Translations under genes and position numbers: made by a program | Notes under the pieces: model-generated | What the model was told of the DNA's origin: nothing | Database searches by the model: none | What the model saw: only the letters and a program-made list of their open reading frames with translations | Shown: one piece after another, positions 1,002 through 24,691 of the stretch | Numbering within the stretch: the first letter of the stretch is position 1 | Layout of the letters: each line of letters starts with the position of its first letter | Source of the DNA: a virus | Length of the DNA: 64,000 bases | IMG/VR virus record: IMGVR_UViG_3300029319_008461 | Location: 16,845 to 80,844 of that record | Direction: 5' to 3' (one strand)

Positions 1002-2272
1002 TTAAAGTTATATTGAAAGGTCCTATTCTGAGTCGTAGTGGCTACGGCGAACATACGAGATATATGTATAGAGCCTTAGCATCTCGGCCAGATATTTTTG
1101 ATTTGTACATTCATCCCACTGGATGGGGACAGTCAAGTTGGGTTCTGACCGGCAAAGAAACGAGAGCAGTTGAAAAATGTATTGAAAAAATACACCACTT
1201 CAAAGGTACGTTTGATTTGTCCTTGCAAGTATTAATACCCAGCGAATTTGAAAACATAGCCACTAAGAATATTGGAGTTACTGCTGCTGTAGAGACTACG
1301 GCTGCTTCAGCACAATGGATTAACAAGGCTAATCATATGGACGCTGTATTTGTAACCTCTGAACACGCAAAAAAATCTCTGGTGACTCCAAACTATTCTG
1401 TGAAAGCAGAAGATGGGATGACATATGAAATTATGATGCAAAAACCCGTCGAGGTTATTTCGTACCCGTTTAGAGAATTTGAAAACAACAAGGACACTCA
1501 CAAGAGAATTGATCTTGAAACAGAATTTAATTTTTACACGTCCGCACAATTTGGACCAAGAAAAAACTTAATGAACACTATTCATTGGTTTGTTCAAGAA
1601 TTTAAAGACGATGAGGACGTTGGCCTTGTTGTTAAAGCACACCATAAAAACAATAGTCAAATCGATCGTCAAAAGATGATTGTTCAATTATCAGCAGCAG
1701 TTCATAGTGTGCCTCATAGAAAGTGTAAAGTCTATTTGCTTCATGGATCGATGGAAGATGACGAGATGAACTCGGTTTATACGCATCCTGACATTCACGC
1801 TTACATTACAGCAACACACGGTGAGGGTTTTGGGTTGCCAATATTTGAAGCAGCTTGTAATGGACTCCCAGTAGTTGCTCCGGCTTGGTCAGGACATGTT
1901 GATTTTTTATATGACAATGTTAAAAATGAAAAATCAGGACGTGTAAAAAGAACTCCAATGTTTACGAAAGTAAAATATACACTTGGAAAAATACAACAAG
2001 AGGCAGTTTGGGATACTGTTCTCAATGCCGAGACCGAGTGGTGTTATCCAGATGAGGCAGCTTTTAAAAAGGCTGTCAGAAGTGTTAAGACTGCTTATAT
2101 AGCTAAGAAAAAGACAGCAGAGAAATTGCAAGAATCTCTTAGGGAAAGACTAGACCAAGATAAGATGCTTCAATATGTTGTCGATAGAGTCTTGGAGGTC
2201 TGTCCGCAAGATTTTGTTGAACTGGAGGGCTTCTTTAATAATCTCTCTGAAGAATTAGAAGTTCATGACTAG
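998..2272 (+). CDS. Glycosyltransferase family 4 (GT-B)
   Basis: N-terminal SGYGEHTR, PRKNL, and EGFGLPIFEAAC motif. ATGA overlap with the previous gene. Confidence 0.9.
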   Translation: MIKVILKGPILSRSGYGEHTRYMYRALASRPDIFDLYIHPTGWGQSSWVLTGKETRAVEKCIEKIHHFKGTFDLSLQVLIPSEFENIATKNIGVTAAVETTAASAQWINKANHMDAVFVTSEHAKKSLVTPNYSVKAEDGMTYEIMMQKPVEVISYPFREFENNKDTHKRIDLETEFNFYTSAQFGPRKNLMNTIHWFVQEFKDDEDVGLVVKAHHKNNSQIDRQKMIVQLSAAVHSVPHRKCKVYLLHGSMEDDEMNSVYTHPDIHAYITATHGEGFGLPIFEAACNGLPVVAPAWSGHVDFLYDNVKNEKSGRVKRTPMFTKVKYTLGKIQQEAVWDTVLNAETEWCYPDEAAFKKAVRSVKTAYIAKKKTAEKLQESLRERLDQDKMLQYVVDRVLEVCPQDFVELEGFFNNLSEELEVHD

Positions 2273-3113
2273 GATACATTTTATTGCCGATGTTTTTGCG
2301 GAACAACATCTTGGAGGTGGAGAACTAAGCAACCAAGAGTTGATAAAGTTACTAGGGCAAAAAGATAAAGAAGTTATTCAGTGTCTTTCTGCGCAAGTCA
2401 CCCCAGATTACATCTTGGAAAATAGGGGTGATAAATTCATTGTTGGGAATTTCTTAGGCCTGTCCGAGGACAGCAAGAAATGTTTGATGGACAATTGTAG
2501 TTACATAATTTACGAACACGACCACAAGTATTTAATCTCTAGAGATCCGTCTGTGTATGAAAATTATCAGGCACCTGATAGTCATATCATAAATAAAGAT
2601 TTTTATGAATCATCAGTAGGTGTTATTTGCCAGTCAAAACTTCACAGAGATGTTGTTAAACAAAACTTAAAACTTGATAATATTATCTCAGTTGGTGGCA
2701 ATCTTTGGGATGATCACACCCTTAATCTTTTACGAAAACTTTGTAACAAGGACAAACGTCAGCGCTACTCAATCTGGGATTCTGTGAATCCGATTAAGAA
2801 CACTCCAATGACAGTTGCTTACTGCAAAAGAAATGAAATACCTTTTGACTTAGTTGGCTTTCTTCCTTATGATAAGTTTTTAGAGGACATCACTAACAAT
2901 GATACTTTTATATTTTTGCCTCAAACTTTAGAAACTCTATGTCGAGTAGCTGTTGAGTGTAGAATGGCCGGAATGAAAGTTATCACCAATAAGAAAATCG
3001 GAGCCTCAAGCGAAGATTGGTTTAAATTAAAGGGAGAAGAGTTGATAGACTATATGGCAGAAAAGAAACACCAAATATGTCTTAAGGTGGAGGAGTTGTT
3101 TGATGAGTCCTAA
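2265..3113 (+). CDS. Putative GT-B glycosyltransferase
   Basis: N-terminal GGGELSN and C-terminal ETLCRVAVECRMAG (E-x7-E-like) motif; glycan-cluster context. Confidence 0.65.
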   Translation: MTRIHFIADVFAEQHLGGGELSNQELIKLLGQKDKEVIQCLSAQVTPDYILENRGDKFIVGNFLGLSEDSKKCLMDNCSYIIYEHDHKYLISRDPSVYENYQAPDSHIINKDFYESSVGVICQSKLHRDVVKQNLKLDNIISVGGNLWDDHTLNLLRKLCNKDKRQRYSIWDSVNPIKNTPMTVAYCKRNEIPFDLVGFLPYDKFLEDITNNDTFIFLPQTLETLCRVAVECRMAGMKVITNKKIGASSEDWFKLKGEELIDYMAEKKHQICLKVEELFDES

Positions 3114-3840
3114 GTTTACAATTATTATACCCTGTTATAATGCCGAGAACTATATTGAACAATGTGTCAAATCAGCGCTGAATCAAGACTATGAAAACTT
3201 TGAAGTTATTGTTGTTGATAATGATAGTGGCGATGATAGTTATGAAATAGTGGAATCCCTCCAGGATGAATATGATTTCTCCCTTGATACAGCACAAAAC
3301 TTATATCCTTTCTCTTGGTCAGAACCAGTTGAAAAGGCCCTAGAAGAATTTACGGGAGATTACTTTACTATCTTGGGTGCAGACGATTACCTGTCCCCAG
3401 ATTATGTTTCCAATATTATGAAATATATTCAAGAGTCTGATGAGGAGATCCACTGTTTTCAGAGTGCCCTTAGGACCGTAGATAAAAACGGAGAATTGCA
3501 AGGTGGAGAATTATCTCACGATTACAATGACTTAGATGATCTAAAGGAAAAATTACTCGATAGGTGCGTTGTGACCACACCGTCAGTTGTTTTTTCTAGA
3601 GAATTATTCCGAAAAGGTTTGACAAAGTGGGACTCTGAAAATTATCTTGGTGCAGCAGATTACGCTTTATATTTCTCACTTGTTGACGAGGGAGTGCATA
3701 TTCACCTTAACAAAGAGTGGTTAGGATACTACTATAGATGGCACGAAAAGCAGGCCACCTGGGGAATGCAACAACAACCTGTCAATTATGACTTTATGCT
3801 ACAGAATAAGTGGCGTCAAAAGTGGGAAAATGAAAACTAG
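3103..3840 (+). CDS. Glycosyltransferase family 2 (GT-A)
   Basis: IIIPCYNAENYIEQCVKSALNQ, VVDNDSGDDS, GADD (DxD-like), and YYYRWH. Confidence 0.92.
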   Translation: MSPKFTIIIPCYNAENYIEQCVKSALNQDYENFEVIVVDNDSGDDSYEIVESLQDEYDFSLDTAQNLYPFSWSEPVEKALEEFTGDYFTILGADDYLSPDYVSNIMKYIQESDEEIHCFQSALRTVDKNGELQGGELSHDYNDLDDLKEKLLDRCVVTTPSVVFSRELFRKGLTKWDSENYLGAADYALYFSLVDEGVHIHLNKEWLGYYYRWHEKQATWGMQQQPVNYDFMLQNKWRQKWENEN

Positions 3841-5623
3841 AGTTGTAGATTATATTGCCGACAAAATAGTAGAGCTTGGAGTTAGAGATGTGTTTACTCT
3901 AACTGGTGGCGGAGCTATGTTTCTTAACGATTGTGTTGCAAAGCATCCACAGTTAGAAGCCATATGTAATCATCATGAACAAGCTTGTGCAATGGGTGCT
4001 GTTGGTTACGCTAAATATACTAATGGGTTTGGTGTATCGATGGTCACCACAGGATGTGGCAGCACTAATGCTATCACAGGATTACTGGAAGCTTGGCAAG
4101 ATAACGTAAAGTGTTTGTTTTTTTCTGGTCAAGTTAATAAATCACAAACAACACACGGATCTAATTTGCCACTCCGACAGCTTGGGGTACAAGAGGCTAA
4201 TATAATCGATGTGGTAGCGCCGTTGTGCAAATATTCAATTATGATAACTGATGCCAATGATATTAGGTATGAGCTTGAGAAAGCTATACACTTGTGTCAG
4301 ACGGGCCGCCCAGGTCCTGTGTGGATTGATATTCCTATGGATATACAAGGGGCATATGTTGATATTGATGAGTTAAGGGGGTACAGTGAAACCCCAGAAG
4401 TTAAAACTGATGTTACAACTGATGAGATTCTTCAAATTAAACAAATGTTTAACCAAGCAAAGAGGCCAGTTCTTTTGGTTGGTAATGGGGTTAGGTTATC
4501 CGGCGCAACAAAAGAACTTAAGCAATTTGTTGAAAAATACAATATACCAACTGTAGCTACTTTTCTTGGCGTTGACTTACTAGAAAGTGACAACCCTCTA
4601 ATGATAGGTCGAGTTGGGATCAAGGGAAATAGGGCTGCAAATTTTGCAATGCAGAATGCAGACTTGTTAATAACTGTGGGTACAAGACTTGGTGTTCCCG
4701 TAACAGGATACAATTATGAGACTTTTGCCAGAGAGGCAAAGATAGTTGTTGTGGACATTGAAAAAGAGGAACACCTAAAAGATACAATCAAAATAGATAA
4801 GCTAATCGCTGCTGATGCAAAGAAATTCTTTACCTCCACCGTGCTAGATAAACAAGCGTCAAGACAGTGGGCAATGATTTGTCTGGATTGGAAAAACAAG
4901 TGGCGTGTATGTAACCCAGAATGGAATCAAGATAAAGATGGTATTGATCTGTATTACTTTACAGATAAGTTATCCAAGGCAAATAAGAAAGATTCTGTTG
5001 TTGTATCTGACGCTGGATCTGCTTATTATGTACCATCTCAATTTTTAGATATAAAAGATCAACAGAGGTACGTTACTTCTGGCGCACAAGCTGATATGGG
5101 ATTTACAATCCCGGCTGCCATTGGTGTTAGTGTGGCCAAGAACAAAGAAGAGGTTATTGGTATTACCGGTGATGGCTCTTTCCAGACAAATATACAGGAA
5201 CTTCAAACAATAAAACACTATCAGCTTCCAGTTAAGATATTTGTTTGGAATAACCATGGTTACTTATCAATTCGTACAACGCAAAACAAATTTTTTAAGG
5301 GCAGGTTTATAGGGGTTGATCAGGACTCTGGGGTCTCACTGCCGGACATTCAAAAGATAACCGAGGCGTATGGACTTAAGTATTTTAAGATTGAAAACAC
5401 AAAAGAACTAGAATCAGGCATCAGTCAAGTTCTAGATTATGATGGTCCTGTTGTATGCGAAGTTATGTGCCAAAAATGGCAGGAAGTTGTTCCTACCCTT
5501 ATATCAACCAAAACCAAAGATGGCAGAATTGTGTCACGGCCTTTTGAGGATATGTATCCGTTGTTAACTCGTGATGAGTTCTATGATAATATGATAATAG
5601 ATCCTATCAAATATGAGGAGTGA
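3830..5623 (+). CDS. ThDP-dependent acetolactate-synthase-like enzyme; YerE-like branched-sugar carboligase by context
   Basis: HHEQACAM, GRPGPVWIDIP, and GDGSFQ...WNN ThDP motif. It sits beside RfbH and RmlB, with no IlvH/IlvN small subunit nearby. Confidence 0.85.
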   Translation: MKTRVVDYIADKIVELGVRDVFTLTGGGAMFLNDCVAKHPQLEAICNHHEQACAMGAVGYAKYTNGFGVSMVTTGCGSTNAITGLLEAWQDNVKCLFFSGQVNKSQTTHGSNLPLRQLGVQEANIIDVVAPLCKYSIMITDANDIRYELEKAIHLCQTGRPGPVWIDIPMDIQGAYVDIDELRGYSETPEVKTDVTTDEILQIKQMFNQAKRPVLLVGNGVRLSGATKELKQFVEKYNIPTVATFLGVDLLESDNPLMIGRVGIKGNRAANFAMQNADLLITVGTRLGVPVTGYNYETFAREAKIVVVDIEKEEHLKDTIKIDKLIAADAKKFFTSTVLDKQASRQWAMICLDWKNKWRVCNPEWNQDKDGIDLYYFTDKLSKANKKDSVVVSDAGSAYYVPSQFLDIKDQQRYVTSGAQADMGFTIPAAIGVSVAKNKEEVIGITGDGSFQTNIQELQTIKHYQLPVKIFVWNNHGYLSIRTTQNKFFKGRFIGVDQDSGVSLPDIQKITEAYGLKYFKIENTKELESGISQVLDYDGPVVCEVMCQKWQEVVPTLISTKTKDGRIVSRPFEDMYPLLTRDEFYDNMIIDPIKYEE

Positions 5624-5625
5624 TA

Positions 5626-6555
5626 ATGTCTAAGGAAAGAAAAAAAGTAACAATCCTAACTCTTAGGAAAAATAAAAGAGAAAATAAAAAATCAGTTTTT
5701 GTAACAGCATACGACTACCCACAAGCAATGTTAGCTCATAGGGCTGGTGTGGATGGGATATTGGTTGGTGACTCACTTGGTATGACCACACTAGGTCACA
5801 AAACAACAATTCCAGTTACAATGGATGATATGATTAGGCACGCAGAGGCCGTTGCTAGGGGTGCAAAGGCTCCATTCCTAGTTGGAGATATGCCTTACAT
5901 GTCTTATCAAGCATCTAATGCTGATGCTGTTCGTAATGCTGGAAGATTTATTAGAGCCGGAATGGACGCTGTAAAGGTAGAAGGAGCAATGGTCGATCGC
6001 ATCAAAGCCATCGCTGATGCGGGCATCCTAGTGCAAAGCCACCTGGGACTAACTCCTCACACCATGGCAATGCAGGGAGGATATAGAGTCCAGGGAAAAA
6101 CAGCAAAAAGCACAGAAATAATTCTCAACCAAGCGCTAGAACTTCAGGAAGCAGGTTGTGCGTTTTTGTTACTAGAGGCAATGCCAAGAGAATCAGCGCA
6201 GGCAGTAGCAAGAGAATTATCAATACCTGTTTTTGGTATTGGTGCTGGTGATCTTGTCGATGGCCAGTTAGTTATTATGCATGACCTTGTTGGTCTTTTT
6301 TGGGACTTCAAATCAAAGTTTGTAAAAAGATATTGTGAAGCCGGTGCTATGATTCAAGATTCTCTAGAGCAATACGCTCAAGAGGTTCGAGATGGGTCAT
6401 TCCCGTCCGAAGAAAACTTTTACGAAATTAAAGACGAGGAACTGGAAAAAATTACCAATTGGAAATACGAAACTGATCAAGGATTCCCAACGAATCACAG
6501 TGCTACGCCTAATACTGTTACACCTAAAAAAGATATATTTGACGGTAAAAAATGA
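5626..6555 (+). CDS. panB: Ketopantoate hydroxymethyltransferase (PanB) family
   Basis: TAYDY, LVGDSLGM, GDMPYMSY, AVKVEG, HLGLTP, and GIGAG...DGQ motifs. Confidence 0.92.
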   Translation: MSKERKKVTILTLRKNKRENKKSVFVTAYDYPQAMLAHRAGVDGILVGDSLGMTTLGHKTTIPVTMDDMIRHAEAVARGAKAPFLVGDMPYMSYQASNADAVRNAGRFIRAGMDAVKVEGAMVDRIKAIADAGILVQSHLGLTPHTMAMQGGYRVQGKTAKSTEIILNQALELQEAGCAFLLLEAMPRESAQAVARELSIPVFGIGAGDLVDGQLVIMHDLVGLFWDFKSKFVKRYCEAGAMIQDSLEQYAQEVRDGSFPSEENFYEIKDEELEKITNWKYETDQGFPTNHSATPNTVTPKKDIFDGKK

Positions 6556-7388
6556 GAGTTCTCATAACTGGACGGAACGGGTTTCTTGCAAGGGAGCTAT
6601 CCGATCGTCTTGACGATTTTGAGGTAACCTGTGTCGGTCGCCAAGAGGTGGACCTCACTAACTCTCATAATGTTGATTTATTTTTTGAAGATAAAACTTT
6701 TGATGCTGTTTTGCACACAGCCATTATTGGTGGACGTCGAGGACAACAAGATGAGTTTAAAGATTTTTCTGACAACGTATCAATGTTCAGTAACTTACTA
6801 AGACATAAAGATAAGTTTAACAAGTTTATAAACTTTTGTTCTGGTGCGGCCTTTGGAAGATGTGCTGACATATATGAGTGGCACGAAAACAGAATCCATT
6901 CTTGGCTGCCTGGCGGAGGCGACTATTATGGAATGTCAAAAAACATAATTGGACGAGAGTGCAATAAGCTGGATGGTTTTTATAATTTAAGATTGTTTGG
7001 ATGTTTCGGGTTTCATGAAGCAGAAAAAAGGTTTGTTAAATCAGCTTTGGAAAAAGCATTAGTTGGAGAACCAATAGTTATTCATCAGAATAAAATGATG
7101 GACTATATTTCTGCTGAAGATATCTGCACAGTGGTAAGACATTATCTTGTGAGTGATATTAAAAAAGAACTTCAGGACATTAATATTTGCTATGAGGACA
7201 AAACCACTCTGAGAGGTATTGCGGTAAAAATTGTAAACTTAACAAAATCAGAATCAGAGATAATAATAGAAGAGCCAGGATTCTCTGTATCATATACAGG
7301 CAACGCTGATAAGTTGAAAAGTCTTAATTTAAGCCTGCAAGGAATAGAAAAGGGACTCTTAGCTCTCTTGGAGAAATTAATTGGATAA
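6552..7388 (+). CDS. NAD-dependent epimerase/reductase (extended SDR)
   Basis: ITGRNGFLA Rossmann motif, YGMSK (YxxxK), and LRLFGCFG. Confidence 0.85.
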   Translation: MRVLITGRNGFLARELSDRLDDFEVTCVGRQEVDLTNSHNVDLFFEDKTFDAVLHTAIIGGRRGQQDEFKDFSDNVSMFSNLLRHKDKFNKFINFCSGAAFGRCADIYEWHENRIHSWLPGGGDYYGMSKNIIGRECNKLDGFYNLRLFGCFGFHEAEKRFVKSALEKALVGEPIVIHQNKMMDYISAEDICTVVRHYLVSDIKKELQDINICYEDKTTLRGIAVKIVNLTKSESEIIIEEPGFSVSYTGNADKLKSLNLSLQGIEKGLLALLEKLIG

Positions 7389-8724
7389 GCTTCAAAAAAT
7401 ACTTTCACTAGTCGAAGAATATGCTCAAGAAAACCTTTTAGATAAAAGCTGGGAACCTGGACAATGGGTTAATTATTCTGGACCTCATTTTAGCACTGAC
7501 GAGTTTCGGGCAGCCGTCGAGGCTTTGCTAGGTGGCTGGCTTGTGTTTGGAAAGAAGGCCAGAGTTTTTGAACAAACATTCCCGGAGCACTTAGGTAAAA
7601 ACTTTGGGATGTTAACAAACTCAGGAAGCTCAGCCAACTTGATAATGACTCAAGCTTTAACTAGTAAAAAAAGCTTTATGAAAAAGTATCATTTACCTAA
7701 GGGTAGTAAGATTATCACCCCAGTGGTTTGTTTCCCAACAACCTTGAATCCTATTATACAGACAGGATATGAACCAGTATTTGTAGACGTGGACTTGCCA
7801 TCTTTGAACTTAAATTTAGATCAGGTAGAAAAAATCCTTGAAGAGGATAGTTCAATCAGAGGTATTGTTTTTGCTCACGTTCTGGGAAATCCTCCTGATA
7901 TGGATAGGCTTATGCATTTAGTTGATAAGTATAAACTTATTTTCTTGGAGGATTCATGTGATGCCTTGGGTTCTTTTTATGATGATAAAAAACTAGGTTC
8001 CTTCGGGCACATGTCAAGCTGTTCATTTTACCCCGCTCATCATATGACTTTGGGAGAGGGCGGATTTGTAGCTACAGATGACCCAAGACTCAGAAGGGCG
8101 TTGGCCAGTTTTAGAGACTGGGGTCGTGCTTGTTATTGTAACGAGCAAAAACCTGGAGACGTCACTGCTGGAACAGCTTGCGGCAATAGGTTTAAGCCCT
8201 GGCTTAAATACGGCAAAGAAAGAATAAATTATGATCACCGTTATGTGTTCGATGAGATTGGTTTTAACTTGAAGCCGCTAGAGTTACAAGCAGCTATTGG
8301 ACTAGAACAACTACATAAGCTACCGGAGATGGATTCAGCCAGACGGGAAAACTTTCGATCTTTCACTAAAATATTTTCAAAATACGAGGAGTATTTTATG
8401 CTCCCGAGGGCTACAGATAAATCAGATCCAAATTGGTTTGGATATTTGTTGACAGTTAAAGAAGGTAGCGGGTTCAGTCGTGAGCAGTTTGTCCAGCATT
8501 TAGAGGACAACAAAATACAGACAAGATCTTATTTTGCAGGGAATTGTTTATATCATCCGGCTTATGTAGAGTTCGCTAGCAAATACGACAATCTTAGGGA
8601 CGAGTTTCCTAATGCTCACAAGGCCACAGTCGGATCTTTTTTTCTAGGAACCTTTATTGGTATAACAGAGCAAAAATTAAACTATATTGAGGGGGTTGTT
8701 GATGAGTTCTTCAAAAACCTATGA
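7381..8724 (+). CDS. rfbH: NDP-4-keto-6-deoxyhexose 3-dehydrase (RfbH/DdhC/AscC, E1)
   Basis: DegT fold. SFYPAHHMTLGEGG has His in place of the Schiff-base Lys. The RDWGRACYC...TACGNRF Cys cluster is typical of [2Fe-2S] E1. YDHRY and RSYFAGN are present. Confidence 0.88.
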   Translation: MDKLQKILSLVEEYAQENLLDKSWEPGQWVNYSGPHFSTDEFRAAVEALLGGWLVFGKKARVFEQTFPEHLGKNFGMLTNSGSSANLIMTQALTSKKSFMKKYHLPKGSKIITPVVCFPTTLNPIIQTGYEPVFVDVDLPSLNLNLDQVEKILEEDSSIRGIVFAHVLGNPPDMDRLMHLVDKYKLIFLEDSCDALGSFYDDKKLGSFGHMSSCSFYPAHHMTLGEGGFVATDDPRLRRALASFRDWGRACYCNEQKPGDVTAGTACGNRFKPWLKYGKERINYDHRYVFDEIGFNLKPLELQAAIGLEQLHKLPEMDSARRENFRSFTKIFSKYEEYFMLPRATDKSDPNWFGYLLTVKEGSGFSREQFVQHLEDNKIQTRSYFAGNCLYHPAYVEFASKYDNLRDEFPNAHKATVGSFFLGTFIGITEQKLNYIEGVVDEFFKNL

Positions 8725-8725
8725 T

Positions 8726-9676
8726 ATGAAAATTATATGTGTAACTGGATGTTTAGGGTTCATACCTTCTTACTTCGTTGAAAAATGTCTTAAGCGTGGC
8801 TGGATGGTGTATGGTATTGATAAGTTGACCTACGCAGCTAACCTGGGTTTCTTAGAAGAGCTTAATAAGTATGATAATTTTAAGTTTGTAAACGCTGATA
8901 TAAAAGACATAAAAGCAATATGCGACTGTGATTATGTTGTGAACTTTGCTGCCGAATCCCACGTTGGAAATAGTATTATTAACAGTGAGGAATTTATAAA
9001 CACGAATATTGTCGGCACAAAAAACCTTCTTGATCTTGTGCGGTTCAAGCCAAGAAATTGTGGAACTAGACCCGTGTTCATTCAGATTAGCACTGATGAA
9101 GTATATGGTGATATATTAGAGGGGGAACACACAGAAGAGGATTTACTACACCCTAGTAATCCATATTCAGCAGCTAAAGCTGCTGCCGACATGCTTGTTT
9201 TAGCTTGGTCTAGAACTTATGATCTAGAATATTTGATAGTTCGGCCTACTAATAATTACGGAATCAGACAATACCCTGAAAAGCTTATACCTCTTGCTGT
9301 TAAGAATTTACTACGAGGCAGAAAAATTTCTCTTCACAATAATGGAACACCAATAAGAAACTGGTTACATGCTGATGATACAGCAGAAGCTGTTTTAACT
9401 CTTATAGACAACGAGGTTGTTAATGAGATTTACAACGTCTCTGGTGATTTTGAGCAATCAAACGCTGAGACGGTTAGAAAAGTTATACAATCATTTTTTG
9501 GAACAGAAGAAAACTGGCAAAGCCATGTTGATTATTCATATGTTAGAAAGGGACAAGACCTAAGGTATTGTCTTGGGGATTCTAAAATTAGAAATCTTGG
9601 CTGGACGCCTAAAAAAGAATTTGATAATGAGATAGACTCTATTGTAGATTACTACAAGAATAATTTTATTTGGTAA
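8726..9676 (+). CDS. rmlB: dTDP-glucose 4,6-dehydratase
   Basis: DKLTYAAN, AAESHV, ISTDEVYG, PSNPYSAAK, and NNYGIRQYPEKLIP. Confidence 0.9.
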   Translation: MKIICVTGCLGFIPSYFVEKCLKRGWMVYGIDKLTYAANLGFLEELNKYDNFKFVNADIKDIKAICDCDYVVNFAAESHVGNSIINSEEFINTNIVGTKNLLDLVRFKPRNCGTRPVFIQISTDEVYGDILEGEHTEEDLLHPSNPYSAAKAAADMLVLAWSRTYDLEYLIVRPTNNYGIRQYPEKLIPLAVKNLLRGRKISLHNNGTPIRNWLHADDTAEAVLTLIDNEVVNEIYNVSGDFEQSNAETVRKVIQSFFGTEENWQSHVDYSYVRKGQDLRYCLGDSKIRNLGWTPKKEFDNEIDSIVDYYKNNFIW

Positions 9677-9679
9677 CAT

Positions 9680-10633
9680 ATGAAACTAACATTTGATGAC
9701 ATCATAGACAAACATAAAGGAGAGACGTGCGTCATTTCTTTGCACGGCCCAAGCTTGGAGCCTTATATAGAAAAGATCCAAGAACTACAGAGAGATAACA
9801 AAATTACCAGATTCTCTGTCAATGAGTGGTTTGATTACTTTGAGGAAAAACCAGACTATTGGGTGGTATCAAATACAGAGTTTAATATAAGGGACTCTAT
9901 TCTTAATGAGAACATTTGGAAACTTAGAAAATATCCGGTCGATGTTTTCAACACATATAAAGTTCCGTTGTTCTATAATAAGGCGGCGGATCTCACTGAC
10001 CCCTCTTTTGTGGATGATAATTTAAAGTTTGATTATCTCCCGTATGACAACAAGCACTTCAAGGGGCATGGTTGCATTGAGATACTTAAAAACTTCAAAA
10101 ATTATTACGAAGAGAACAAAAATTTAAATTTTGAAATGTATGGCAACAACAAGCAAATGTGGCAGTTTCCTGACACAAAAAATGAAAACGTTAACGAGTT
10201 TTGTGCCCACGTCCACGCTGGACTAGCAGGCGGTTGGTCAAGGACAGGCCACTGTTGTCATCTTAAGGATGATAATCCAACACTACAAGAGAAACTACAA
10301 CAATATTCAGGACATGATCGCCATTGTGGAGTTGGACAAACTGTGGGGTTGTTTTGTGTGGCTTTTGCCATATTGATGGGGTTTAAAAAAATATACATTG
10401 TAGGGCTTGACTTAGATTATTCTTTGGGGTATGCTGAGGGGTACCCTGAAGACAAAAACTATTATGTCCCTAATGTTGCACAAGTTGGTCACTGGAGATA
10501 TGTGTACAAAGACTTTTTGACTGATGATATGAAAATTTTACGGGAAAGTGCTGCCCTAAAAGGCACAGAGATTATTAACCTAAACAAAGAAGCATGGTAT
10601 GATGAATTTACCAAAGGAGATTTAAAGGTATGA
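9680..10633 (+). CDS. Putative Maf/DUF115- or GT42-like nonulosonate transferase
   Basis: HKGETCVISLHGPSL resembles the GNGPSL motif, and MGFKKIYIVGLDLDY resembles the GYKEIYLxGxDF motif. It lies directly upstream of neuB and neuA. Confidence 0.55.
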   Translation: MKLTFDDIIDKHKGETCVISLHGPSLEPYIEKIQELQRDNKITRFSVNEWFDYFEEKPDYWVVSNTEFNIRDSILNENIWKLRKYPVDVFNTYKVPLFYNKAADLTDPSFVDDNLKFDYLPYDNKHFKGHGCIEILKNFKNYYEENKNLNFEMYGNNKQMWQFPDTKNENVNEFCAHVHAGLAGGWSRTGHCCHLKDDNPTLQEKLQQYSGHDRHCGVGQTVGLFCVAFAILMGFKKIYIVGLDLDYSLGYAEGYPEDKNYYVPNVAQVGHWRYVYKDFLTDDMKILRESAALKGTEIINLNKEAWYDEFTKGDLKV

Positions 10634-11466
10634 GTGTTTTTGTAATTGCAGAAATCGGTATTAACCACAACGGCAGCCTGGATATCGCTAAGCAGCTTAT
10701 TAGTGAGGCCGCAGCAGCAGGTTGTGATGCAGTTAAGTTCCAAAAAAGAACTATTGAAAAAGTTTATTCAAAGGAGGAGCTTGATAAGCCAAGAGAGAGC
10801 CCTTGGGGGACAACAAACAGAGAACAAAAGAATGGATTAGAATTTACCGAATCTGACTATGAGCAGATTGACGCTTACTGCAAAGAAAAGAATATTGAAT
10901 GGTTCGCATCTGCTTGGGATGTTGATAGTCAAATTTTCATGCGTCGGTTTAATTGTAAATACAATAAAGTTGCGTCGGCTATGCTTACACACAGAGAACT
11001 TCTAGAAGAAATTGCATCTGAAAAGAAACATACTTTTATTTCTACTGGAATGAGTACACTTGAACAAATTGATAAGGTAGTTGAAATTTTTAAAAGCCAC
11101 GACTGCTCTTTTGAACTTATGCATTGTAACAGCACCTACCCGATGCAACTTGAAGATGCAAATCTGCGTGTGATGCACACGCTGCAAGATAGGTACGGTT
11201 GTAATGTTGGATACAGTGGCCACGAAACAGGTATTATTATTAGTTGTGCTGCTGTTGCCATTGGTGCCTCATCTTTGGAAAGACACATTACTCTTGACCG
11301 AGCGATGTATGGATCAGATCAGTCTGCGTCCTTGGAGATCGTTGGACTTAAAAGAATGATGGATTATGTTAGGGATATCATCGCCTGTATGGGTTCTCCC
11401 GAAAAGAAGGTTATGGATACTGAAGTTTCTATCGCTGAGAAGCTACGAAAGGTAGATACTCTGTGA
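10630..11466 (+). CDS. neuB: N-acetylneuraminate/nonulosonate synthase (NeuB family), short form without the C-terminal SAF domain
   Basis: IAEIGINHNG, AVKFQKR, HCNSTYP, GYSGHE, and ERHITLDR; only 278 aa. Confidence 0.93.
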   Translation: MSVFVIAEIGINHNGSLDIAKQLISEAAAAGCDAVKFQKRTIEKVYSKEELDKPRESPWGTTNREQKNGLEFTESDYEQIDAYCKEKNIEWFASAWDVDSQIFMRRFNCKYNKVASAMLTHRELLEEIASEKKHTFISTGMSTLEQIDKVVEIFKSHDCSFELMHCNSTYPMQLEDANLRVMHTLQDRYGCNVGYSGHETGIIISCAAVAIGASSLERHITLDRAMYGSDQSASLEIVGLKRMMDYVRDIIACMGSPEKKVMDTEVSIAEKLRKVDTL

Positions 11467-12203
11467 GTAGAATAAATGCCTTAATACCTGCAAGGGGCGG
11501 TAGTAAAGGTGTGCCCAAGAAGAATATTAAACTTCTTCACGGTCATCCGCTAATAGCTTATTCGATCATTGCTTGTCAACAATCAAAAATGATCGATAAA
11601 GTTATTGTATCTACAGATGATCAAGAAATTGCTAATGTGGCTTTGCAGTACGGGGCAGAAGTTCCATTCTTGAGGCCATCTGAATTAGCTGGCGACCGAT
11701 CTAGGGACGAGGAAGTGATACAACACTACTTTGATTCTCTAGGCGGGTCTGATATTGCTTATGTCAGGCCTACTACACCTCTAAGAGATCCAGAAGTAAT
11801 AGACGAAGAGATTAAAAGATATTTTCACACTAAGATACTTGTTTCGACTGGTGTAAGGTCAATGCATAAGTTGCCTGAATCTCCCCACAAGATGTTTCAA
11901 CTTGATAAGAACGGTTACTGTTGTGGTTTTTTTGAGGACTTCAAGGGAGAAAAAAATTATACAAACTTACCAAGACAAGTGTTTCCAGCAGCCTATCAAC
12001 CAAATGGTTATTTGGACATTGTAAAGAGAGTTACACTTCAAGATGGTGATGCGTTTGGCGAAACAGTCTTGCCTATAATCACTGATTTTGTTTTGGAGGT
12101 TGATACTGAATATGAGTTTGAACTTATAGATTATCATCTGGCCACAAGAGGTCATAAGTTGTTGGATAAATTAAATGAAGCAAAAAGTAAAAACGAATCA
12201 TAG
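11463..12203 (+). CDS. neuA: Acylneuraminate cytidylyltransferase (CMP-nonulosonate synthetase)
   Basis: IPARGGSKGVPKKNI, VSTDD, FLRPSELA, and PTTPLR; GTG start. Confidence 0.93.
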   Translation: MSRINALIPARGGSKGVPKKNIKLLHGHPLIAYSIIACQQSKMIDKVIVSTDDQEIANVALQYGAEVPFLRPSELAGDRSRDEEVIQHYFDSLGGSDIAYVRPTTPLRDPEVIDEEIKRYFHTKILVSTGVRSMHKLPESPHKMFQLDKNGYCCGFFEDFKGEKNYTNLPRQVFPAAYQPNGYLDIVKRVTLQDGDAFGETVLPIITDFVLEVDTEYEFELIDYHLATRGHKLLDKLNEAKSKNES

Positions 12204-13440
12204 ATCCATAAACGATGGTTACCGTTTAAAACAAAACAAATTACACGACAAACGACACTCTACAGAGACCGAGGCAAACGGACACCAGGTGCCGGTTGTC
12301 TGGGATCGTGCATACGACTACAATGTCTTTGATAAGGACGGTAACAAATGGATTGATATGACCTCTGGTATATTTGTTACTAATGCTGGACATGCCAATC
12401 CACAAATTAAAAAAGCTATCAAAGATCAGGTTGATGCCGATCTAATATTTGCTTACCAGTATATAACCGAGATAAGACAGGAGTATGTTAACAAGCTTTT
12501 AGAAGCCTCTCCTAATCACTTTGAAAAATCGATACTTCTTAACACTGGTTCTGAGGCTACTGATGCAGCCTATCGACTGGTTAAATCTTGGGCAAAAAAG
12601 AACAACAAAAAATATATTATAACTTTCAACGGTAGTTATCACGGAAGAGTTCTCGGTTCGGCCTTTATATGTGGGTCCAAGGACGCAACAGAGTGGTCTT
12701 CTATGGTAGATGATGATGTGGTGTTTATAGACTTTCCTATAGATCCAGATGCTGAGTTTGATCCTAGCATCCTGCCACCCGCTGATCAGATCGCAGCATT
12801 TTTCCTAGAGACGTACCAAGGTTGGGCTGCTTGGATGTATCCACCTCAATATATTCAAGCTCTTTACAAGTTTGCAAGAGACAACGGAGCACTTGTTTGT
12901 TTTGATGAGGTCCAGTCAGGGTTCTATAGGATGGGTGAGTTGTATGGATACATGACCTATGGTGACAACATTGAGCCAGATCTTATTTGTCTTGGAAAAG
13001 GAATATCATCGTCAATTCCTATGTCAGCTATACTTGGCACAAAAGAAATTATTGATGTTGATCTAAATGCTAATCTAAGTGGTACACATGCTGGAAATAC
13101 TTTGGGGTGTGCAGCCTGTTTAGCAAACATAAAATTCTTAACAGATAAAAAGTTTCAAAAGGAACTTAACAAAAGAATACAGGTTTTTGAAAAGAGAAGT
13201 CACAAACTTCTAGACTATGATTGTGTCACTAATGTTAACGCTAGGGGTATGGTGGCCGGTATTGTTTTTGACACAACAGAAAGAACAAATAAAATTGTTA
13301 CTGATTGTATTGAAAATGGAGTCCTGCCGGTCTGTACTTTTAGAGAGTCAATAAAATTAGGACCGCCACTAACTTTACCCATTGAAGCTATTGACGAAGC
13401 TTTTGACGTAATAGAGCAATGTATCAATAAGAACATATAG
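12175..13440 (+). CDS. Class III PLP-dependent aminotransferase
   Basis: DGNKWIDM, NTGSEA, SYHGR, FDEVQSGF, PDLICLGK, and GTHAGN. Confidence 0.9.
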   Translation: MKQKVKTNHRSINDGYRLKQNKLHDKRHSTETEANGHQVPVVWDRAYDYNVFDKDGNKWIDMTSGIFVTNAGHANPQIKKAIKDQVDADLIFAYQYITEIRQEYVNKLLEASPNHFEKSILLNTGSEATDAAYRLVKSWAKKNNKKYIITFNGSYHGRVLGSAFICGSKDATEWSSMVDDDVVFIDFPIDPDAEFDPSILPPADQIAAFFLETYQGWAAWMYPPQYIQALYKFARDNGALVCFDEVQSGFYRMGELYGYMTYGDNIEPDLICLGKGISSSIPMSAILGTKEIIDVDLNANLSGTHAGNTLGCAACLANIKFLTDKKFQKELNKRIQVFEKRSHKLLDYDCVTNVNARGMVAGIVFDTTERTNKIVTDCIENGVLPVCTFRESIKLGPPLTLPIEAIDEAFDVIEQCINKNI

Positions 13441-13442
13441 TT

Positions 13443-13865
13443 ATGTTAAATATTAGACACACTGGAATAGTTGTAACAGATATGCAGAAGTCCATAGACT
13501 TCTACGAGAGTCTGGGGTTTGAGATAAAAAAAGATATGATAGAGTCTGGTCCTTATATTGATAGTTTACTTTCTATAGATGGTGGCGAGGTCAACACAGT
13601 TAAAATGAGTTTGAGGGATGGGGGTATGGTGGAACTTCTTCATTTTAAGAACCATCAAGAGGAACCGACACCTGGTAGTTTAACTAATATTGGTTGCACT
13701 CATTTTGCCATGACTGTTGACAATCTGGAAGAAACATATAATAATCTTGTAATATCGGGGGTTGAGTTTGTTAGCGAGCCACAGTTTTCACCAGATGGCT
13801 TTGCGAGAGTTGTGTTTTGTAAGGACCCCGATGGAACTTTTATAGAGTTAGTAGAGGAAGTTTGA
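13443..13865 (+). CDS. VOC/glyoxalase-family protein
   Basis: HTGIVVTD...VELL...HFAMTVD...DPDGTFIELVE metal-ligand pattern. Confidence 0.9.
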   Translation: MLNIRHTGIVVTDMQKSIDFYESLGFEIKKDMIESGPYIDSLLSIDGGEVNTVKMSLRDGGMVELLHFKNHQEEPTPGSLTNIGCTHFAMTVDNLEETYNNLVISGVEFVSEPQFSPDGFARVVFCKDPDGTFIELVEEV

Positions 13866-14638
13866 TGAAACTTGGAATGATACAAGGACGGTTGCTTAGG
13901 CCGGAGGACGGTGGTATTCAGGAATTTCCATCTTGTTGGAAAGAGGAATTTGATAGAGCAAAAAGCTTAGGTCTTAATCACATTGAATGGATTGTAACAA
14001 CTAGATCTTTCAGTTATAATGCGATTTTTTCTAAGGACTGTTCTGAGTTTCCAATCAGTTCCTTGTGTGCCGATAATCTTGTTGACGATAGATTCACTCA
14101 GAGTGATTTCTTGCGTGATAATTTAGATCCAATTTGCAAAGCTGCTATTGACAATAGTGTCATGTGGGTTACTGTACCGCTACTAGAGAAGAGTGCTATA
14201 CACGACGCACAAAAAAGACAAGCGTTCAAGCAGGAGATATTAAAGTATGCCGAAAGATATCCAAGGTTAAATTTTTCGTTCGAGGCCGAAACCACAGCAG
14301 AGAATGTTTTGGATATAGTCAAGGAGAATAAGAATTTTTGGATCACTTATGACACAGGGAATATAACCTCTGAAAGAATTGATCACAAGGATTACATCCA
14401 AAAAACACACAACAGGATAAGCAATGTGCATTTGAAGGATAGGACATTTGATGCTAAAACTGTTATACCTTTGAGCGGTGATACTCCCTTTGATGACATT
14501 TTTAACACTTTGTCAACCGTAAACTATAATAACCTATACACTATGCAGACTGCTCGTGGTGTTACGGGCTCTGAATTAATGACTATGAAACAACATAAGA
14601 ATATTTTTGAAAGGATTTATCATGCAGCGAACCCCTGA
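13865..14638 (+). CDS. Sugar-phosphate isomerase/epimerase (xylose-isomerase-like TIM barrel)
   Basis: LGMIQGRL, IEW, FEAE, YDTGN, and VHLKDR. Confidence 0.8.
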   Translation: MKLGMIQGRLLRPEDGGIQEFPSCWKEEFDRAKSLGLNHIEWIVTTRSFSYNAIFSKDCSEFPISSLCADNLVDDRFTQSDFLRDNLDPICKAAIDNSVMWVTVPLLEKSAIHDAQKRQAFKQEILKYAERYPRLNFSFEAETTAENVLDIVKENKNFWITYDTGNITSERIDHKDYIQKTHNRISNVHLKDRTFDAKTVIPLSGDTPFDDIFNTLSTVNYNNLYTMQTARGVTGSELMTMKQHKNIFERIYHAANP

Positions 14639-15449
14639 TTTATTTGACTTGTCCGGTAAAACAGCGCTAATCACTGGCGCTGGCGGATTGCTGGGACCTA
14701 AACACGCAGAGGCTCTTATTGAGTGTGGCGCACAGGTGATCATCACAGATCACCACGAGGATCGTGCTGTTGCCCGTGCAGAAGAATTGAATGAAAAGTA
14801 TGGCAAACTTGTGGCCACGTCGCATCGGATGGACGTAACTAATAAGTTAGAAATCGAAAATGTTTTTTCTAAGTACGATACGATTGATATCTTAATTAAC
14901 AATGCTGCTAAGGACCCAAAAGTAAAAAAAGATGGTGGACTTAAACCAGACTCTAGATTTGAAACTATGTCCGAGGAATACTGGTCGGAGGGCATTGATG
15001 CCGCCGTTAATGGAACTTTTTTATGCTCCCAGGTTGCCGCAAATAAAATGCTGCAAAACGATACGCCTGGTGTTATCCTAAACATATCATCAGATCTTGG
15101 TGTAATTGCTCCAGACCAGAGGATCTATAGAAAGCCGGGAGTAGAGGAGGACATGCAAAATGTTAAGCCCATTACTTATTCGGCAGCCAAATGGGCAATC
15201 GTTGGTATGACAAAGTATTTGGCCGTTTACTTTGCGAACAAGAATATTCGTGTAAACTGCTTAAGTCCAACCGGCGTGTTCAACAACCATCCAGAGGAGT
15301 TTGTTAAAAAGCTTTCTGGAATTATTCCAATGGGACGAATGGCTCACATTGACGAGTACAAAGGTGCTATTGCATTTTTGTGTTCTGATGCTAGCACATA
15401 TATGACTGGCGAAAACATGGTTATTGATGGGGGCAAAACAGTATGGTAA
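14622..15449 (+). CDS. Classical SDR oxidoreductase (similar in type to PtmA of nonulosonate clusters)
   Basis: TGAGGLLG, INNAA, YSAAK, IRVNCLSP, and TGENMVIDGG. Confidence 0.88.
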   Translation: MQRTPDLFDLSGKTALITGAGGLLGPKHAEALIECGAQVIITDHHEDRAVARAEELNEKYGKLVATSHRMDVTNKLEIENVFSKYDTIDILINNAAKDPKVKKDGGLKPDSRFETMSEEYWSEGIDAAVNGTFLCSQVAANKMLQNDTPGVILNISSDLGVIAPDQRIYRKPGVEEDMQNVKPITYSAAKWAIVGMTKYLAVYFANKNIRVNCLSPTGVFNNHPEEFVKKLSGIIPMGRMAHIDEYKGAIAFLCSDASTYMTGENMVIDGGKTVW

Positions 15450-15808
15450 ACAAAGTTTCACTAGATATGAAACACGTTGACAAAGGATGGGGCTTTGAAC
15501 GTTGGATTGTTAATAAAGAAGAATATTGTGGCAAGTTACTATTCTTTAATAAAGATAAAAGATGTTCTTGGCATTACCATAAAATAAAAGATGAAGTTTT
15601 TTATTTGCAGTCTGGTAAAATGATTGTAAAGTATGGAGACACAGATAGTCTCGAAGAGGCCAATGAGATAGTCCTTAACCCAGGAGACAACTTCTATGTT
15701 TATGTGGGACTAAGACATCAAATGATAGCGTTAGAAGATTCAGAATTGTTTGAGTTTTCAACACAGCATTTTGATAGTGATAGTTATAGGGTGGTAAAAG
15801 GTGACTAA
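15443..15808 (+). CDS. Cupin (mannose-6-phosphate-isomerase-like)
   Basis: KGWG...SWHYHKIKDEVFY...RHQM cupin motif. Confidence 0.8.
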   Translation: MVNKVSLDMKHVDKGWGFERWIVNKEEYCGKLLFFNKDKRCSWHYHKIKDEVFYLQSGKMIVKYGDTDSLEEANEIVLNPGDNFYVYVGLRHQMIALEDSELFEFSTQHFDSDSYRVVKGD

Positions 15809-17117: not shown

Positions 17118-17600
17118 ATGTTTTTCCCAGAGGTTAAGATTTTTGAAGCTGATATGTTTAGGGAATATCGTGGAGATATTTGGACAACGTATAAGAAAAA
17201 AACATTCCCAGTAGACTTAGATTTTGTACACGACAAGTTCTCATCCTCCAGGAGAAACGTAATCCGAGGAATACATGGAGACTATAAAACTTGGAAACTA
17301 GTAAGTTGTCTGCAAGGTGAACTGTATTTCGTTGTAGTTGATAACAGAAAAGAATCACAAAATTACCTTAAGTGGGATTGTATGATGCTTGATGACAAAG
17401 ACCGTAGACAGGTTTTGTTACCCCCTGGGTTTGGAAATGGATTTTGTGTGATGAGCGACTCTGCTGTATTTAGTTACAAGTTGGCCTATGAAGGTGAATA
17501 CTCGGACGTCGATCAGCAATTTACCTTAAAATGGAATGATACTCATGTTAACATAAACTGGCCAATAGATAGCCCAATATTACAAGCGAGAGATAAATGA
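17118..17600 (+). CDS. rmlC: dTDP-4-dehydrorhamnose 3,5-epimerase family
   Basis: SRRNVIRGIHG, KLVSC-x-QG, VVVDNR, PPGFGNGF, and WND...NWP. Confidence 0.88.
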   Translation: MFFPEVKIFEADMFREYRGDIWTTYKKKTFPVDLDFVHDKFSSSRRNVIRGIHGDYKTWKLVSCLQGELYFVVVDNRKESQNYLKWDCMMLDDKDRRQVLLPPGFGNGFCVMSDSAVFSYKLAYEGEYSDVDQQFTLKWNDTHVNINWPIDSPILQARDK

Positions 17601-18223
17601 ATATACCTGACCACCTAGAAAAAGTTAGAGAGGTATCTTTAACCCCCCAGGAGTTGATTGATTTTGAAACAAAAGTCAAAGAAACATATGAGGCTGGAAA
17701 AATTAAAGGACCAATCCATCTAGCCAAGAATAATGAAAATGAACTGATAGAAATATTCCAGTACATAAGCCCCGATGATTGGGTTTTTGTTCCCTGGAGA
17801 AATCACTATCACGCTCTTTTGCACGGCGTTGACCCTGACAAATTGTTTAATTCAATTGTAGAAGGTAGAAGTATGGGCACAAATAATTTAAAGCCAAACT
17901 TTTATGCCTCCTCGATTGTTGGTGGTATCATACCTCTTGCACTGGGGGTTGCTTTGGGGATCAAACAGAGAGGTAAAAACAATCGTGTTTGGTGTTTTGT
18001 TGGTGACATGACTATGGAGACTGGTGTGTTCCATGAGGCTTACAAATATAGTAAGAACTTTGATCTACCCATCCAGTGGGTTGTTGAGGATAATGATATG
18101 AGTGTTCACACCCCAACCGATATGGCCTGGGGTAAAAAACAAGAGGTACCTGATGGTGTAATTTATTATAGATATGAAATGGAATATCCTCATCACGGAA
18201 CAGGAAAGTGGGTAAATTTTTAA
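17597..18223 (+). CDS. ThDP-dependent dehydrogenase E1 alpha-like subunit (short)
   Basis: GKIKGPIHL, WRNHYHALLHG, SSIVGG, and GDM...EDN ThDP motif; 208 aa. Confidence 0.82.
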   Translation: MNIPDHLEKVREVSLTPQELIDFETKVKETYEAGKIKGPIHLAKNNENELIEIFQYISPDDWVFVPWRNHYHALLHGVDPDKLFNSIVEGRSMGTNNLKPNFYASSIVGGIIPLALGVALGIKQRGKNNRVWCFVGDMTMETGVFHEAYKYSKNFDLPIQWVVEDNDMSVHTPTDMAWGKKQEVPDGVIYYRYEMEYPHHGTGKWVNF

Positions 18224-24296: not shown

Positions 24297-24691
24297 AGAT
24301 TGTGTGGACAAATGGTTGTTTTGATGTTTTGCATCGTGGACATATTGAATTGTTTAAATATGCGAGATCATTAGGCGATAAACTTATTGTTGGTCTTGAT
24401 ACAGATGAGAAAGTCAAAGCTGCTAAGGGCGATGATCGGCCATTTAACACTCTAGAAGATAGAGAGTTTTTAGTAAGATCGATAAGATATGTTGATGATA
24501 CAATTTCATTTTCATCAAAAAGTGATTTAGAAAGCTTAATAAAATCCATAAAGCCTGATATTCTTGTTGTAGGATCAGATTGGGAAGGAAAATATGTCGT
24601 TGGCTCACAATATGCAAAAGAACTAAAGTTTTTTGATCGTATTGGTGAATATTCAACGACTAAAGTTTTAAAAAATGCTAATCTACGTTGA
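24293..24691 (+). CDS. rfaE: Heptose-1-phosphate nucleotidyltransferase (HldE/RfaE domain II)
   Basis: TNGCFDVLHRGH (HxGH), KGDDRP, VGSDW, and C-terminal YSTT. Confidence 0.9.
   Translation: MKIVWTNGCFDVLHRGHIELFKYARSLGDKLIVGLDTDEKVKAAKGDDRPFNTLEDREFLVRSIRYVDDTISFSSKSDLESLIKSIKPDILVVGSDWEGKYVVGSQYAKELKFFDRIGEYSTTKVLKNANLR

Follow-up and report, generated by a model that had tools for sequence, protein, structure and literature searches.

Why should a virus carry a gene of the PanB family in the middle of a run of sugar genes, and what might the enzyme make there? The question is raised by a window of 64,000 nucleotides, by which we mean the whole stretch of DNA analysed (bases 16845-80844 of the 80.8 kb IMG/VR virus record IMGVR_UViG_3300029319_008461, about 45% complete by CheckV), in which a PanB gene directly follows the gene of a thiamine diphosphate (ThDP) enzyme and precedes three further sugar genes. 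We argue here that the most likely product of this cassette is a rare deoxy sugar with a carbon branch and that the viral PanB is probably a glycan gene and not a vitamin gene. With moderate confidence, we further propose that PanB replaces the aldolase of the erwiniose/caryophyllose scheme and would supply the 4-hydroxy-2-oxo acid that serves as donor for the ThDP enzyme.

The five-gene cassette

An initial annotation of the window had read the order ThDP enzyme, PanB, short-chain dehydrogenase/reductase (SDR), RfbH and RmlB at 3830-9676. Searches with hidden Markov models (HMMs) confirm this order, and the junctions overlap or abut. The five genes, each an open reading frame (ORF) on the plus strand, are (NDP, nucleoside diphosphate):

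3830-5623, +: YerE-like ThDP carboligase; the ORF opens at 3788, likely start ATG 3830; three TPP domains (TPP_N/M/C)
5626-6555, +: PanB-family hydroxymethyltransferase; the ORF opens at GTG 5620, likely start ATG 5626 with a GAGGAG Shine-Dalgarno
6552-7388, +: extended SDR; PF01370 plus RmlD N-terminal domain
7381-8724, +: RfbH/E1-type NDP-4-keto-6-deoxyhexose 3-dehydrase; NF011936, 450.6 against a cut-off of 423
8726-9676, +: RmlB-like NDP-hexose 4,6-dehydratase; the ORF opens at TTG 8687, likely start ATG 8726

The ThDP enzyme scores 380 bits with TIGR00118, under the cut-off of 538, and falls under all of the acetolactate-synthase equivalog cut-offs. Among solved structures it is most closely related to 8RPH (439 bits); the best acetohydroxyacid synthase (AHAS) reaches 263 bits. 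The structure 8RPH is that of JanthE, a YerE-like enzyme according to the accessible text of PMC12188165, and it is through the solved JanthE that we assign the window enzyme as YerE-like. The GDG...NN ThDP-binding motif is visible in its alignment. The PanB passes the curated cut-offs of its family (PF02548, 325.6 against 28.7; TIGR00222, 286.7 against 207.55; NF001452, 318.4 against 272).

The best solved relative of the RfbH is Yersinia E1 (3BCX, 338 bits); aligned with 3BCX and with bacterial RfbH, it has His where aminotransferases have their Lys, and it keeps the Cys cluster for the [2Fe-2S] centre. The RmlB-like enzyme scores 307.8 bits with TIGR01181 (under the cut-off of 365) against 80 bits with the CDP-type TIGR02622, and is nearer to the dTDP-type than to the CDP-type. 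The SDR encoded in the YerE-type cluster of Campylobacter concisus matches the window only at 6552-7388 (31% identity, E 1e-26), and the window SDR is a probable side-chain ketoreductase in the role of YerF/ErwF. The absence of panC, panE and ilvC, first noted for the window, extends to the whole record, in which profile searches gave no match to panC, ApbA/panE, ilvD or ilvC (KARI_C), and none to a glucose-1-phosphate nucleotidyltransferase (PF00483) or to NAD_binding_1 (E3-like).

The slot beside the carboligase and the linkage of PanB

What PanB might contribute can be judged from the company of related carboligases. Genome contigs were searched for cellular homologues of the ThDP enzyme, and 80 were obtained (42-56% identity, many phyla). 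Most of them have a 4,6-dehydratase, an RfbH (37-41% identity) and an SDR related to that of the window as neighbours; we regard these as genuine YerE-type sugar loci. Counted by the genes that lie no more than 3.5 kb from the ThDP gene, the 80 loci divide as follows:

HpcH/HpaI aldolase: 40 of 80
class I/II aminotransferase: 13 of 80
HpcH aldolase and aminotransferase together: 1 of 80
PanB: 3 of 80
none of aldolase, aminotransferase or PanB: 23 of 80, several truncated

The C. concisus locus, for example, holds a nucleotidyltransferase, 4,6-dehydratase, ThDP enzyme, HAD hydrolase, HpcH/HpaI aldolase, SDR and RfbH, and a Bryobacteraceae chromosome and a marine Flavobacteriaceae metagenome-assembled genome (MAG) hold a nucleotidyltransferase, 4,6-dehydratase, RfbH, ThDP enzyme, PanB and SDR. 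PanB and an aldolase never occurred together among the 80 cellular loci, and neither the window nor any of the 80 viral loci described below yielded an HpcH-type aldolase; Pfam scans of the window ORFs gave no BphI/DmpG-type (ErwI-type) aldolase, a type at which no sequence search was aimed. Three unrelated enzymes that make 2-oxo acids thus alternate in one slot, and this is the strongest argument that PanB would supply the donor.

The type of donor enzyme also tracks the tree of the ThDP enzymes (117 rows thinned from 161; quick mode, LG+G4). One clade of 42 rows is aldolase-linked and includes 17 rows without a detected partner; a second (39 rows, support of 98 in the Shimodaira-Hasegawa-like approximate likelihood ratio test, SH-aLRT) unites the window type with aminotransferase-linked and three bacterial PanB-linked enzymes; and a third (34 rows, SH-aLRT 100) unites a distant viral type with the Chloroflexota enzyme, all PanB-linked.

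In the 14 closest bacterial relatives of the window enzyme (L163-L178, e.g. L164 6844-8022), the ThDP gene is immediately preceded by a class I/II aminotransferase gene, no more than 41 bp away; by its solved relatives, this aminotransferase is of the aspartate/aromatic type. It would be a third, undescribed way to supply a donor to a YerE-like enzyme, perhaps from homoserine. Because of the type of the aminotransferase, and because PanB-linked and aminotransferase-linked ThDP enzymes interleave in the tree, these bacteria might be making 4-hydroxy-2-oxobutanoate.

Homologues of the window PanB number in the thousands, and the best 120 of them are 72-96% identical, all metagenomic and many marine. 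We compared 80 related viral loci (PanB identity 49-86%) with a control of the 80 best cellular PanB loci. In 78 of the viral loci, PanB has a ThDP gene on the same strand no more than 300 bp away, the other two loci being cut by contig ends; the control gave 2 paired loci, 49 that were clearly unpaired and 29 that were undeterminable because a contig end was too near. The paired cellular loci are a Prochlorococcus single-cell contig, whose PanB groups within the viral clade, and a Chloroflexota MAG. Three arrangements occur among the viral loci (window-type ThDP gene upstream of PanB in 31, distant type upstream in 16, distant type downstream in 31), and their flanks vary. The association of PanB with the ThDP gene exceeds chance, and the weight of this pairing rests on its persistence through gene shuffling. 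The search for further partners in the 80 viral loci found SDR1 in 47, RmlB in 57 and a match to the RfbH query in 68, so that the grouping of PanB with YerE/RfbH-type genes, on which the initial annotation had staked its proposal, recurs in other genomes.

The linkage is not confined to phages. A divergent PanB subclade (L069-L082), 49-52% identical to the window PanB, comes from records with the major capsid protein of nucleocytoplasmic large DNA viruses (NCLDV) in 5 of 5 tested and with Gp23 in 0 of 5; the phage-type records had Gp23 in 3 of 5, both near-complete ones included, and the NCLDV capsid in 0 of 5. The order in the giant viruses is PanB, ThDP enzyme, SDR (on the opposite strand), DegT-family gene and 4,6-dehydratase. 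The cassette-side DegT-family gene encodes a His where an aminotransferase would have its Lys, both in phage loci of the two types that we label A and B and in giant-virus loci, and because they are of this His type we regard the DegT-family genes of all three contexts as 3-dehydratases; the Fe-S Cys motif is confined, among the DegT-family genes compared, to the window RfbH and bacterial RfbH. A common core of 4,6-dehydratase, 3-dehydratase, YerE-like enzyme, PanB and SDR is present in the three genomic settings.

Each setting also has genes of its own. The giant-virus cassette (e.g. L074 10001-15563) adjoins a GT34-family glycosyltransferase gene. In type-B phage loci, of which L013 is an example, PanB is immediately preceded by a B12-binding radical SAM gene (8416-9984), and downstream of the ThDP gene there is a radical SAM/SPASM gene (14185-15405); type-B loci also hold RmlC-like genes. 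The radical SAM genes suggest further C-methylation or tailoring of the branched sugar.

A tree of the PanB proteins with 146 rows (161 before identical sequences were collapsed; IQ-TREE quick mode, LG+G4) has a branch with SH-aLRT 99 that separates all 68 viral-type rows from the nearest housekeeping PanBs, those of Bacillota, Chloroflexota, Thermodesulfobacteriota and others. The window PanB thus stands apart from the housekeeping enzymes, a grouping with which would have told against the initial annotation. It is about 50% identical to housekeeping PanB, with no added domain. The Mg and substrate residues of the E. coli enzyme EcKPHMT, as given in the accessible text of PMC13488298 (D45/46, D84, K112, E114, H136 and E181), have their counterparts in D51, D90, K119, E121, H141 and E186 of the window PanB, which are invariant in the 68 viral-type and 75 housekeeping rows. 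A few other positions are specific to the clade (window PanB numbering; the last entry gives the four bacterial ThDP-linked copies):

140: S in 64 of 68 viral-type rows; G in 71 of 75 housekeeping rows; G in 4 of 4
147: H in 57 of 68 viral-type rows; Q in 75 of 75 housekeeping rows; Q in 4 of 4
148: T in 68 of 68 viral-type rows; S, F or A in housekeeping rows; N, S, S, S
205: Y or F in 68 of 68 viral-type rows; L, M or I in housekeeping rows; Y, Y, Y, L
218: V in 68 of 68 viral-type rows; L in 71 of 75 housekeeping rows; V, V, V, I

Further, a C-terminal extension with a Trp-Lys motif is found in 99% of the viral rows and is absent from the housekeeping enzymes; two of the three independent bacterial copies have the motif and the third has Trp-Ile. 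The positions that match I202 and I212 of the E. coli enzyme, which line the nucleophile pocket, are hydrophobic in the viral PanB. The clade-specific pocket changes do not reveal which 2-oxo acid is used.

Gene content likewise separates this PanB from pantothenate synthesis. All 4 bacterial genomes with a ThDP-linked PanB hold two PanB genes, and in 3 of the 4 panC adjoins the other, higher-scoring copy. Five related viral records (2 of them at least 90% complete) gave no panC, no panE-type reductase and no nucleotidyltransferase; the search for ilvC and ilvD covered the window's own record. No genomic tie to the pantothenate pathway, in the form of a link to panC or panE or of a sole panB, was found.

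The proposed route and its alternatives

A unifying scheme for erwiniose, caryophyllose and gastriose has a pyruvate aldolase make a gamma-hydroxy-alpha-keto acid donor, which a YerE-like enzyme (ErwE, MMAR_2332 or MyGE) couples to CDP-4-keto-3,6-dideoxyglucose before a YerF-like reductase finishes the branch; its genes are ErwI/ErwJ-ErwE-ErwF in Pectobacterium atrosepticum, MMAR_2331/2332 in Mycobacterium marinum, and MygI/MyGE/MygF (Steitz et al., 2022, PMC9306805). ErwE refuses pyruvate and takes 4-hydroxy-2-oxobutanoate, -pentanoate and -hexanoate; amino-acid transamination is named as an alternative source of donor, and PanB goes unmentioned in the main text (PMC9306805). As described in the accessible part of PMC10127515, E. 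coli PanB acts as an aldolase that joins formaldehyde to a series of 2-oxo acids, giving 3-substituted 4-hydroxy-2-oxo acids. The chemistry of PanB therefore gives precisely the kind of donor preferred by ErwE-type enzymes.

On this basis we propose a route that is predicted from sequence throughout, in every chemical step, in the order of PanB and the ThDP enzyme, and in its 2-oxo acid, nucleotide and glycan target. The RmlB-like enzyme would convert a host-made NDP-hexose to the NDP-4-keto-6-deoxyhexose, from which the E1-type RfbH, with a host reductase replacing E3, would strip the 3-hydroxyl to leave NDP-4-keto-3,6-dideoxyhexose. PanB would hydroxymethylate a host 2-oxo acid with methylene-tetrahydrofolate, turning pyruvate into 4-hydroxy-2-oxobutanoate, 2-oxobutyrate into its 3-methyl form or 2-oxoisovalerate into ketopantoate. 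The YerE-like enzyme would then decarboxylate this donor on ThDP and add it to the C4 keto group, giving a tertiary alcohol with a 3-hydroxyacyl branch; the SDR would reduce the branch carbonyl, and the neighbouring glycosyltransferases would transfer the sugar to its acceptor. Pyruvate and 2-oxobutyrate together carry about half of our expectation for the 2-oxo acid and 2-oxoisovalerate about a third, and for the finished glycan a role in host-surface modification and one in virion glycosylation are equally conceivable. Of the two roles for PanB that the initial annotation had put forward, the making of an unusual 2-oxo-acid donor is the one that the likeness of the ThDP enzyme to YerE, the slot equivalence and the ErwE precedent support.

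Several observations weigh against this route. The pocket of the viral PanB is almost that of a housekeeping enzyme, with few clade-specific positions, and because of this the product is possibly plain ketopantoate; we found no YerE-like enzyme that has been shown to accept so hindered a donor. The distant viral ThDP type matches JanthE at 321 bits and AHAS at 286, a narrow margin. The 80 viral loci are interrelated and do not represent 80 independent events. The bacterial ThDP-linked PanBs L165, L175 and L179 form a long-branched clade of their own, and although a single clade for all 35 paired rows is unrejected in the approximately unbiased (AU) test, this value (p-AU 0.466) does not demonstrate a single origin of the ThDP-linked PanBs. 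No PanB-ThDP fusion was seen among the 120 listed of 194 longer PanB homologues (a weak negative), in which PanB was fused with PanC, PanE and others and never with TPP domains. Because E3 and the nucleotidyltransferase are missing, the phage pathway is incomplete without the host; in tblastn searches, E3-like genes were found in 4 of the 80 cellular YerE-type loci and in none of the 80 viral loci. Lastly, the evidence for expression is weak. It consists of a few short contigs from one RNA library (X20), in which 5% of the sampled words were present: one contig of 337 nt falls within the ThDP gene, one of 178 nt spans the SDR/RfbH junction, and the others are short partial matches. The library may contain DNA, and the parts that it leaves uncovered carry no meaning.

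The conservation of the pair itself could be read otherwise. PanB and the ThDP enzyme are, by the partner counts given above, the sole strictly conserved pair in the 80 viral loci, and type-B loci have their extra radical SAM and RmlC-like genes, as might be expected if the two enzymes made a free small molecule (a hydroxy-aldehyde, acyloin or hydroxy acid) that is attached as a substituent other than a carbon branch, or to an acceptor other than a 3,6-dideoxy sugar. We consider this unlikely, given that the known natural acceptors of YerE-like enzymes are NDP-4-keto sugars, that a His-type 3-dehydratase stands beside the pair in all three contexts examined, and that the conserved partners of the pair in the related loci include neither an acyltransferase nor a ligase.

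The same two enzymes could also act in the reverse order, the ThDP enzyme adding acetyl from pyruvate and PanB then hydroxymethylating the sugar-bound acetyl or another enolisable or ring carbon, which from pyruvate would give the same skeleton as the proposed route. If true, this would be a folate-dependent C-hydroxymethylation of an NDP-sugar, for which we know of no precedent. The window has its genes in that order, ThDP enzyme and then PanB, but the order is inverted in 31 of the 78 paired viral loci; the pocket changes and Trp-Lys C-terminus of the viral clade could fit a larger substrate, but the residues for the 2-oxo-acid carboxylate and Mg are invariant in a protein that resembles the housekeeping enzyme as closely as described above. 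Further, the analogous order was excluded by experiment for ErwE (PMC9306805), and the slot-mates of PanB, the aminotransferase and the aldolase, act on free acids. We hold this reading to be improbable.

It is very improbable that the two are ordinary auxiliary metabolic genes, a PanB and an acetolactate-synthase-like enzyme that boost host pantothenate/coenzyme A (CoA) or branched-chain amino acids: the PanB does pass its NCBI equivalog cut-off with all catalytic residues kept, and an ocean virome paper reads viral "pantoate transferase" in this way in its accessible text (PMC8940887), but the record lacks panC, panE, ilvC and ilvD and the five related records lack panC and panE, the ThDP enzyme is YerE-like and under every AHAS cut-off, the pair is always embedded among sugar genes, and bacteria with a linked copy keep a separate panB, with panC beside that copy in 3 of 4.

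The sugar island, its carrier and comparison with known systems

The cassette belongs to a single co-directional block of sugar genes of about 25 kb (window 12 to about 24700, by Pfam/NCBIfam scans), with a PhoH-like gene and an exonuclease upstream and a gp25 baseplate wedge gene and a Baseplate_J-like gene downstream. The genes that lead into the cassette are:

12-1001 and 998-2272, +: two GT4 glycosyltransferases (Pfam Glycos_transf_1), upstream of the cassette in many related loci
2265-3113, +: 282-aa protein without a Pfam or NCBIfam match
3100-3840, +: GT2 glycosyltransferase (PF00535, 94.6 bits), directly upstream of the ThDP gene

The ThDP carboligase, the reductase, the deoxy-keto-sugar genes and a glycosyltransferase thus all cluster in the window. 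The 282-aa protein accompanies the GT4 pair, with copies 41-57% identical in related loci (tblastn synteny), and the GT2 gene precedes the ThDP gene in the listed type-A viral loci; the GT2 enzyme is a candidate transferase for the product of the pathway.

Beyond the cassette, window 9680-15808 holds MptE/Maf-like, short NeuB, CMP-sugar synthetase-like and class III aminotransferase genes; it also encodes a cupin, an SDR and two proteins with a glyoxalase fold and a TIM barrel, respectively. The set resembles a module for a nonulosonic acid in which no Pse/Leg/NeuC precursor genes can be recognised, and several related phage loci likewise have it behind the cassette. Another ThDP module, unrelated to that of the cassette, lies at 17118-19921; it comprises RmlC-like, 208-aa E1-alpha-like and 183-aa E1-beta-like (transketolase-pyrimidine-domain) genes and ends with the gene of a His-type DegT-family dehydratase; the E1-alpha/E1-beta pair directly adjoins PanB in L019, L063 and L068, and the module may add a two-carbon branch to another sugar. 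At 22543-24691 are a GDP-mannose-dehydratase-like gene, a PfkB kinase and a small cytidylyltransferase-like gene, which resemble a split HldE and hint at a heptose branch of the island; the PfkB and cytidylyltransferase-like genes accompany PanB in many type-B loci. In the record bases upstream of the window (L002 15040-15714), a 224-aa ORF matches the anthrax-lethal-factor N/C-terminal domain family at 27.9 bits against a cut-off of 27.4, and probably has a metalloprotease-like fold.

Because of the baseplate genes, and because the closely syntenic record L005 (PanB 86% identical) encodes a T4-type Gp23 capsid, we regard the carrier as a marine T4-like myovirus. Two giant ORFs, of 2201 aa (window 29164-35769) and 3631 aa (39513-50408), lie on either side of the gp25 and Baseplate_J genes; their products presumably belong to the fibre or the baseplate and may be targets of the glycosylation genes. 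A tblastn search of 50,697 phage records found no cultivated relative close to the window PanB or ThDP enzyme: the best cultivated-phage match to PanB is in Microcystis phage MaAM05 (44%), the ThDP matches are mostly bacterial contamination (at most 32%), and the nearest cultivated relative of the baseplate protein is in Microcystis phage Mel-JY01 (32%). The window sequence or close relatives of it are present in marine and seawater metagenome runs of several studies.

If the proposed route is correct, a fourth enzyme family would join the few known routes to carbon-branched sugars, and the predicted product, 4-C-(1,3-dihydroxypropyl)-3,6-dideoxyhexose or a methylated form of it, would be an undescribed sugar and the missing step between yersiniose, with its C2 branch, and erwiniose, with its C4 branch. 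A common ocean-virus gene would also need rereading: among the vitamin-related auxiliary genes of one marine virome study, "pantoate transferase" was reported as the most abundant, and the accessible text takes it as a boost to CoA synthesis (PMC8940887), and because the equivalog cut-off is passed, automated annotation will go on calling the viral gene PanB. That T4-like phages and giant viruses of eukaryotes both carry the cassette points to a flow of glycan-pathway genes across virus realms and to viral use of rare sugars, either on virions or on the surface of the host. In biocatalysis, PanB followed by a YerE-like enzyme would be a natural means of turning simple 2-oxo acids into functionalised tertiary alcohols in two steps.

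The setting of the island has a precedent in marine pelagi- and cyanomyophages, where a hypervariable region rich in lipopolysaccharide and glycosyltransferase genes lies beside the tail-fibre module and host-surface modification has been proposed (PMC7029224, accessible text). Here too the sugar island of a marine T4-like phage lies directly upstream of baseplate and giant structural genes; PanB, ThDP enzymes and branched sugars go without mention in the accessible text of that paper.

Set beside housekeeping PanB (E. coli 1M3U), the viral PanB has the same fold family and six pocket residues and scores above the curated HMM cut-offs; it differs in forming a separate clade, in never standing beside panC or panE, in its pocket-motif changes and in its Trp-Lys C-terminus. 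Like the initial annotation, we found no sugar pathway that uses PanB described in the literature. That annotation had also called the module yersiniose-type, and this holds in part. The yersiniose A pathway of Yersinia pseudotuberculosis (DdhA-D, YerE, YerF) and the phage cassette have in common an E1-type 3-dehydrase (RfbH in the phage), a YerE-like carboligase and a reductase; YerE, however, uses pyruvate and needs no donor-forming enzyme (PMC12247030, accessible text), whereas PanB is an obligate neighbour in the phage cassette, which is a variant of the erwiniose/caryophyllose scheme and not of yersiniose proper.

The phage cassette follows the logic of the erwiniose/caryophyllose/gastriose scheme and has three of its four enzyme roles, and bacterial homologues of the window ThDP gene sit in erwiniose-type clusters with an HpcH aldolase. 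It differs in that the donor enzyme would be a folate-dependent PanB and not a pyruvate aldolase, so that the added unit would be extended by one carbon, as a C3 branch or as a methylated C4 or C5 branch; in that the 4,6-dehydratase is RmlB-like and not of the CDP type; in that there is no nucleotidyltransferase or E3; and in that the carrier is viral. Thus, the cassette is a PanB variant of a known branched-sugar pathway and not a new kind of pathway.

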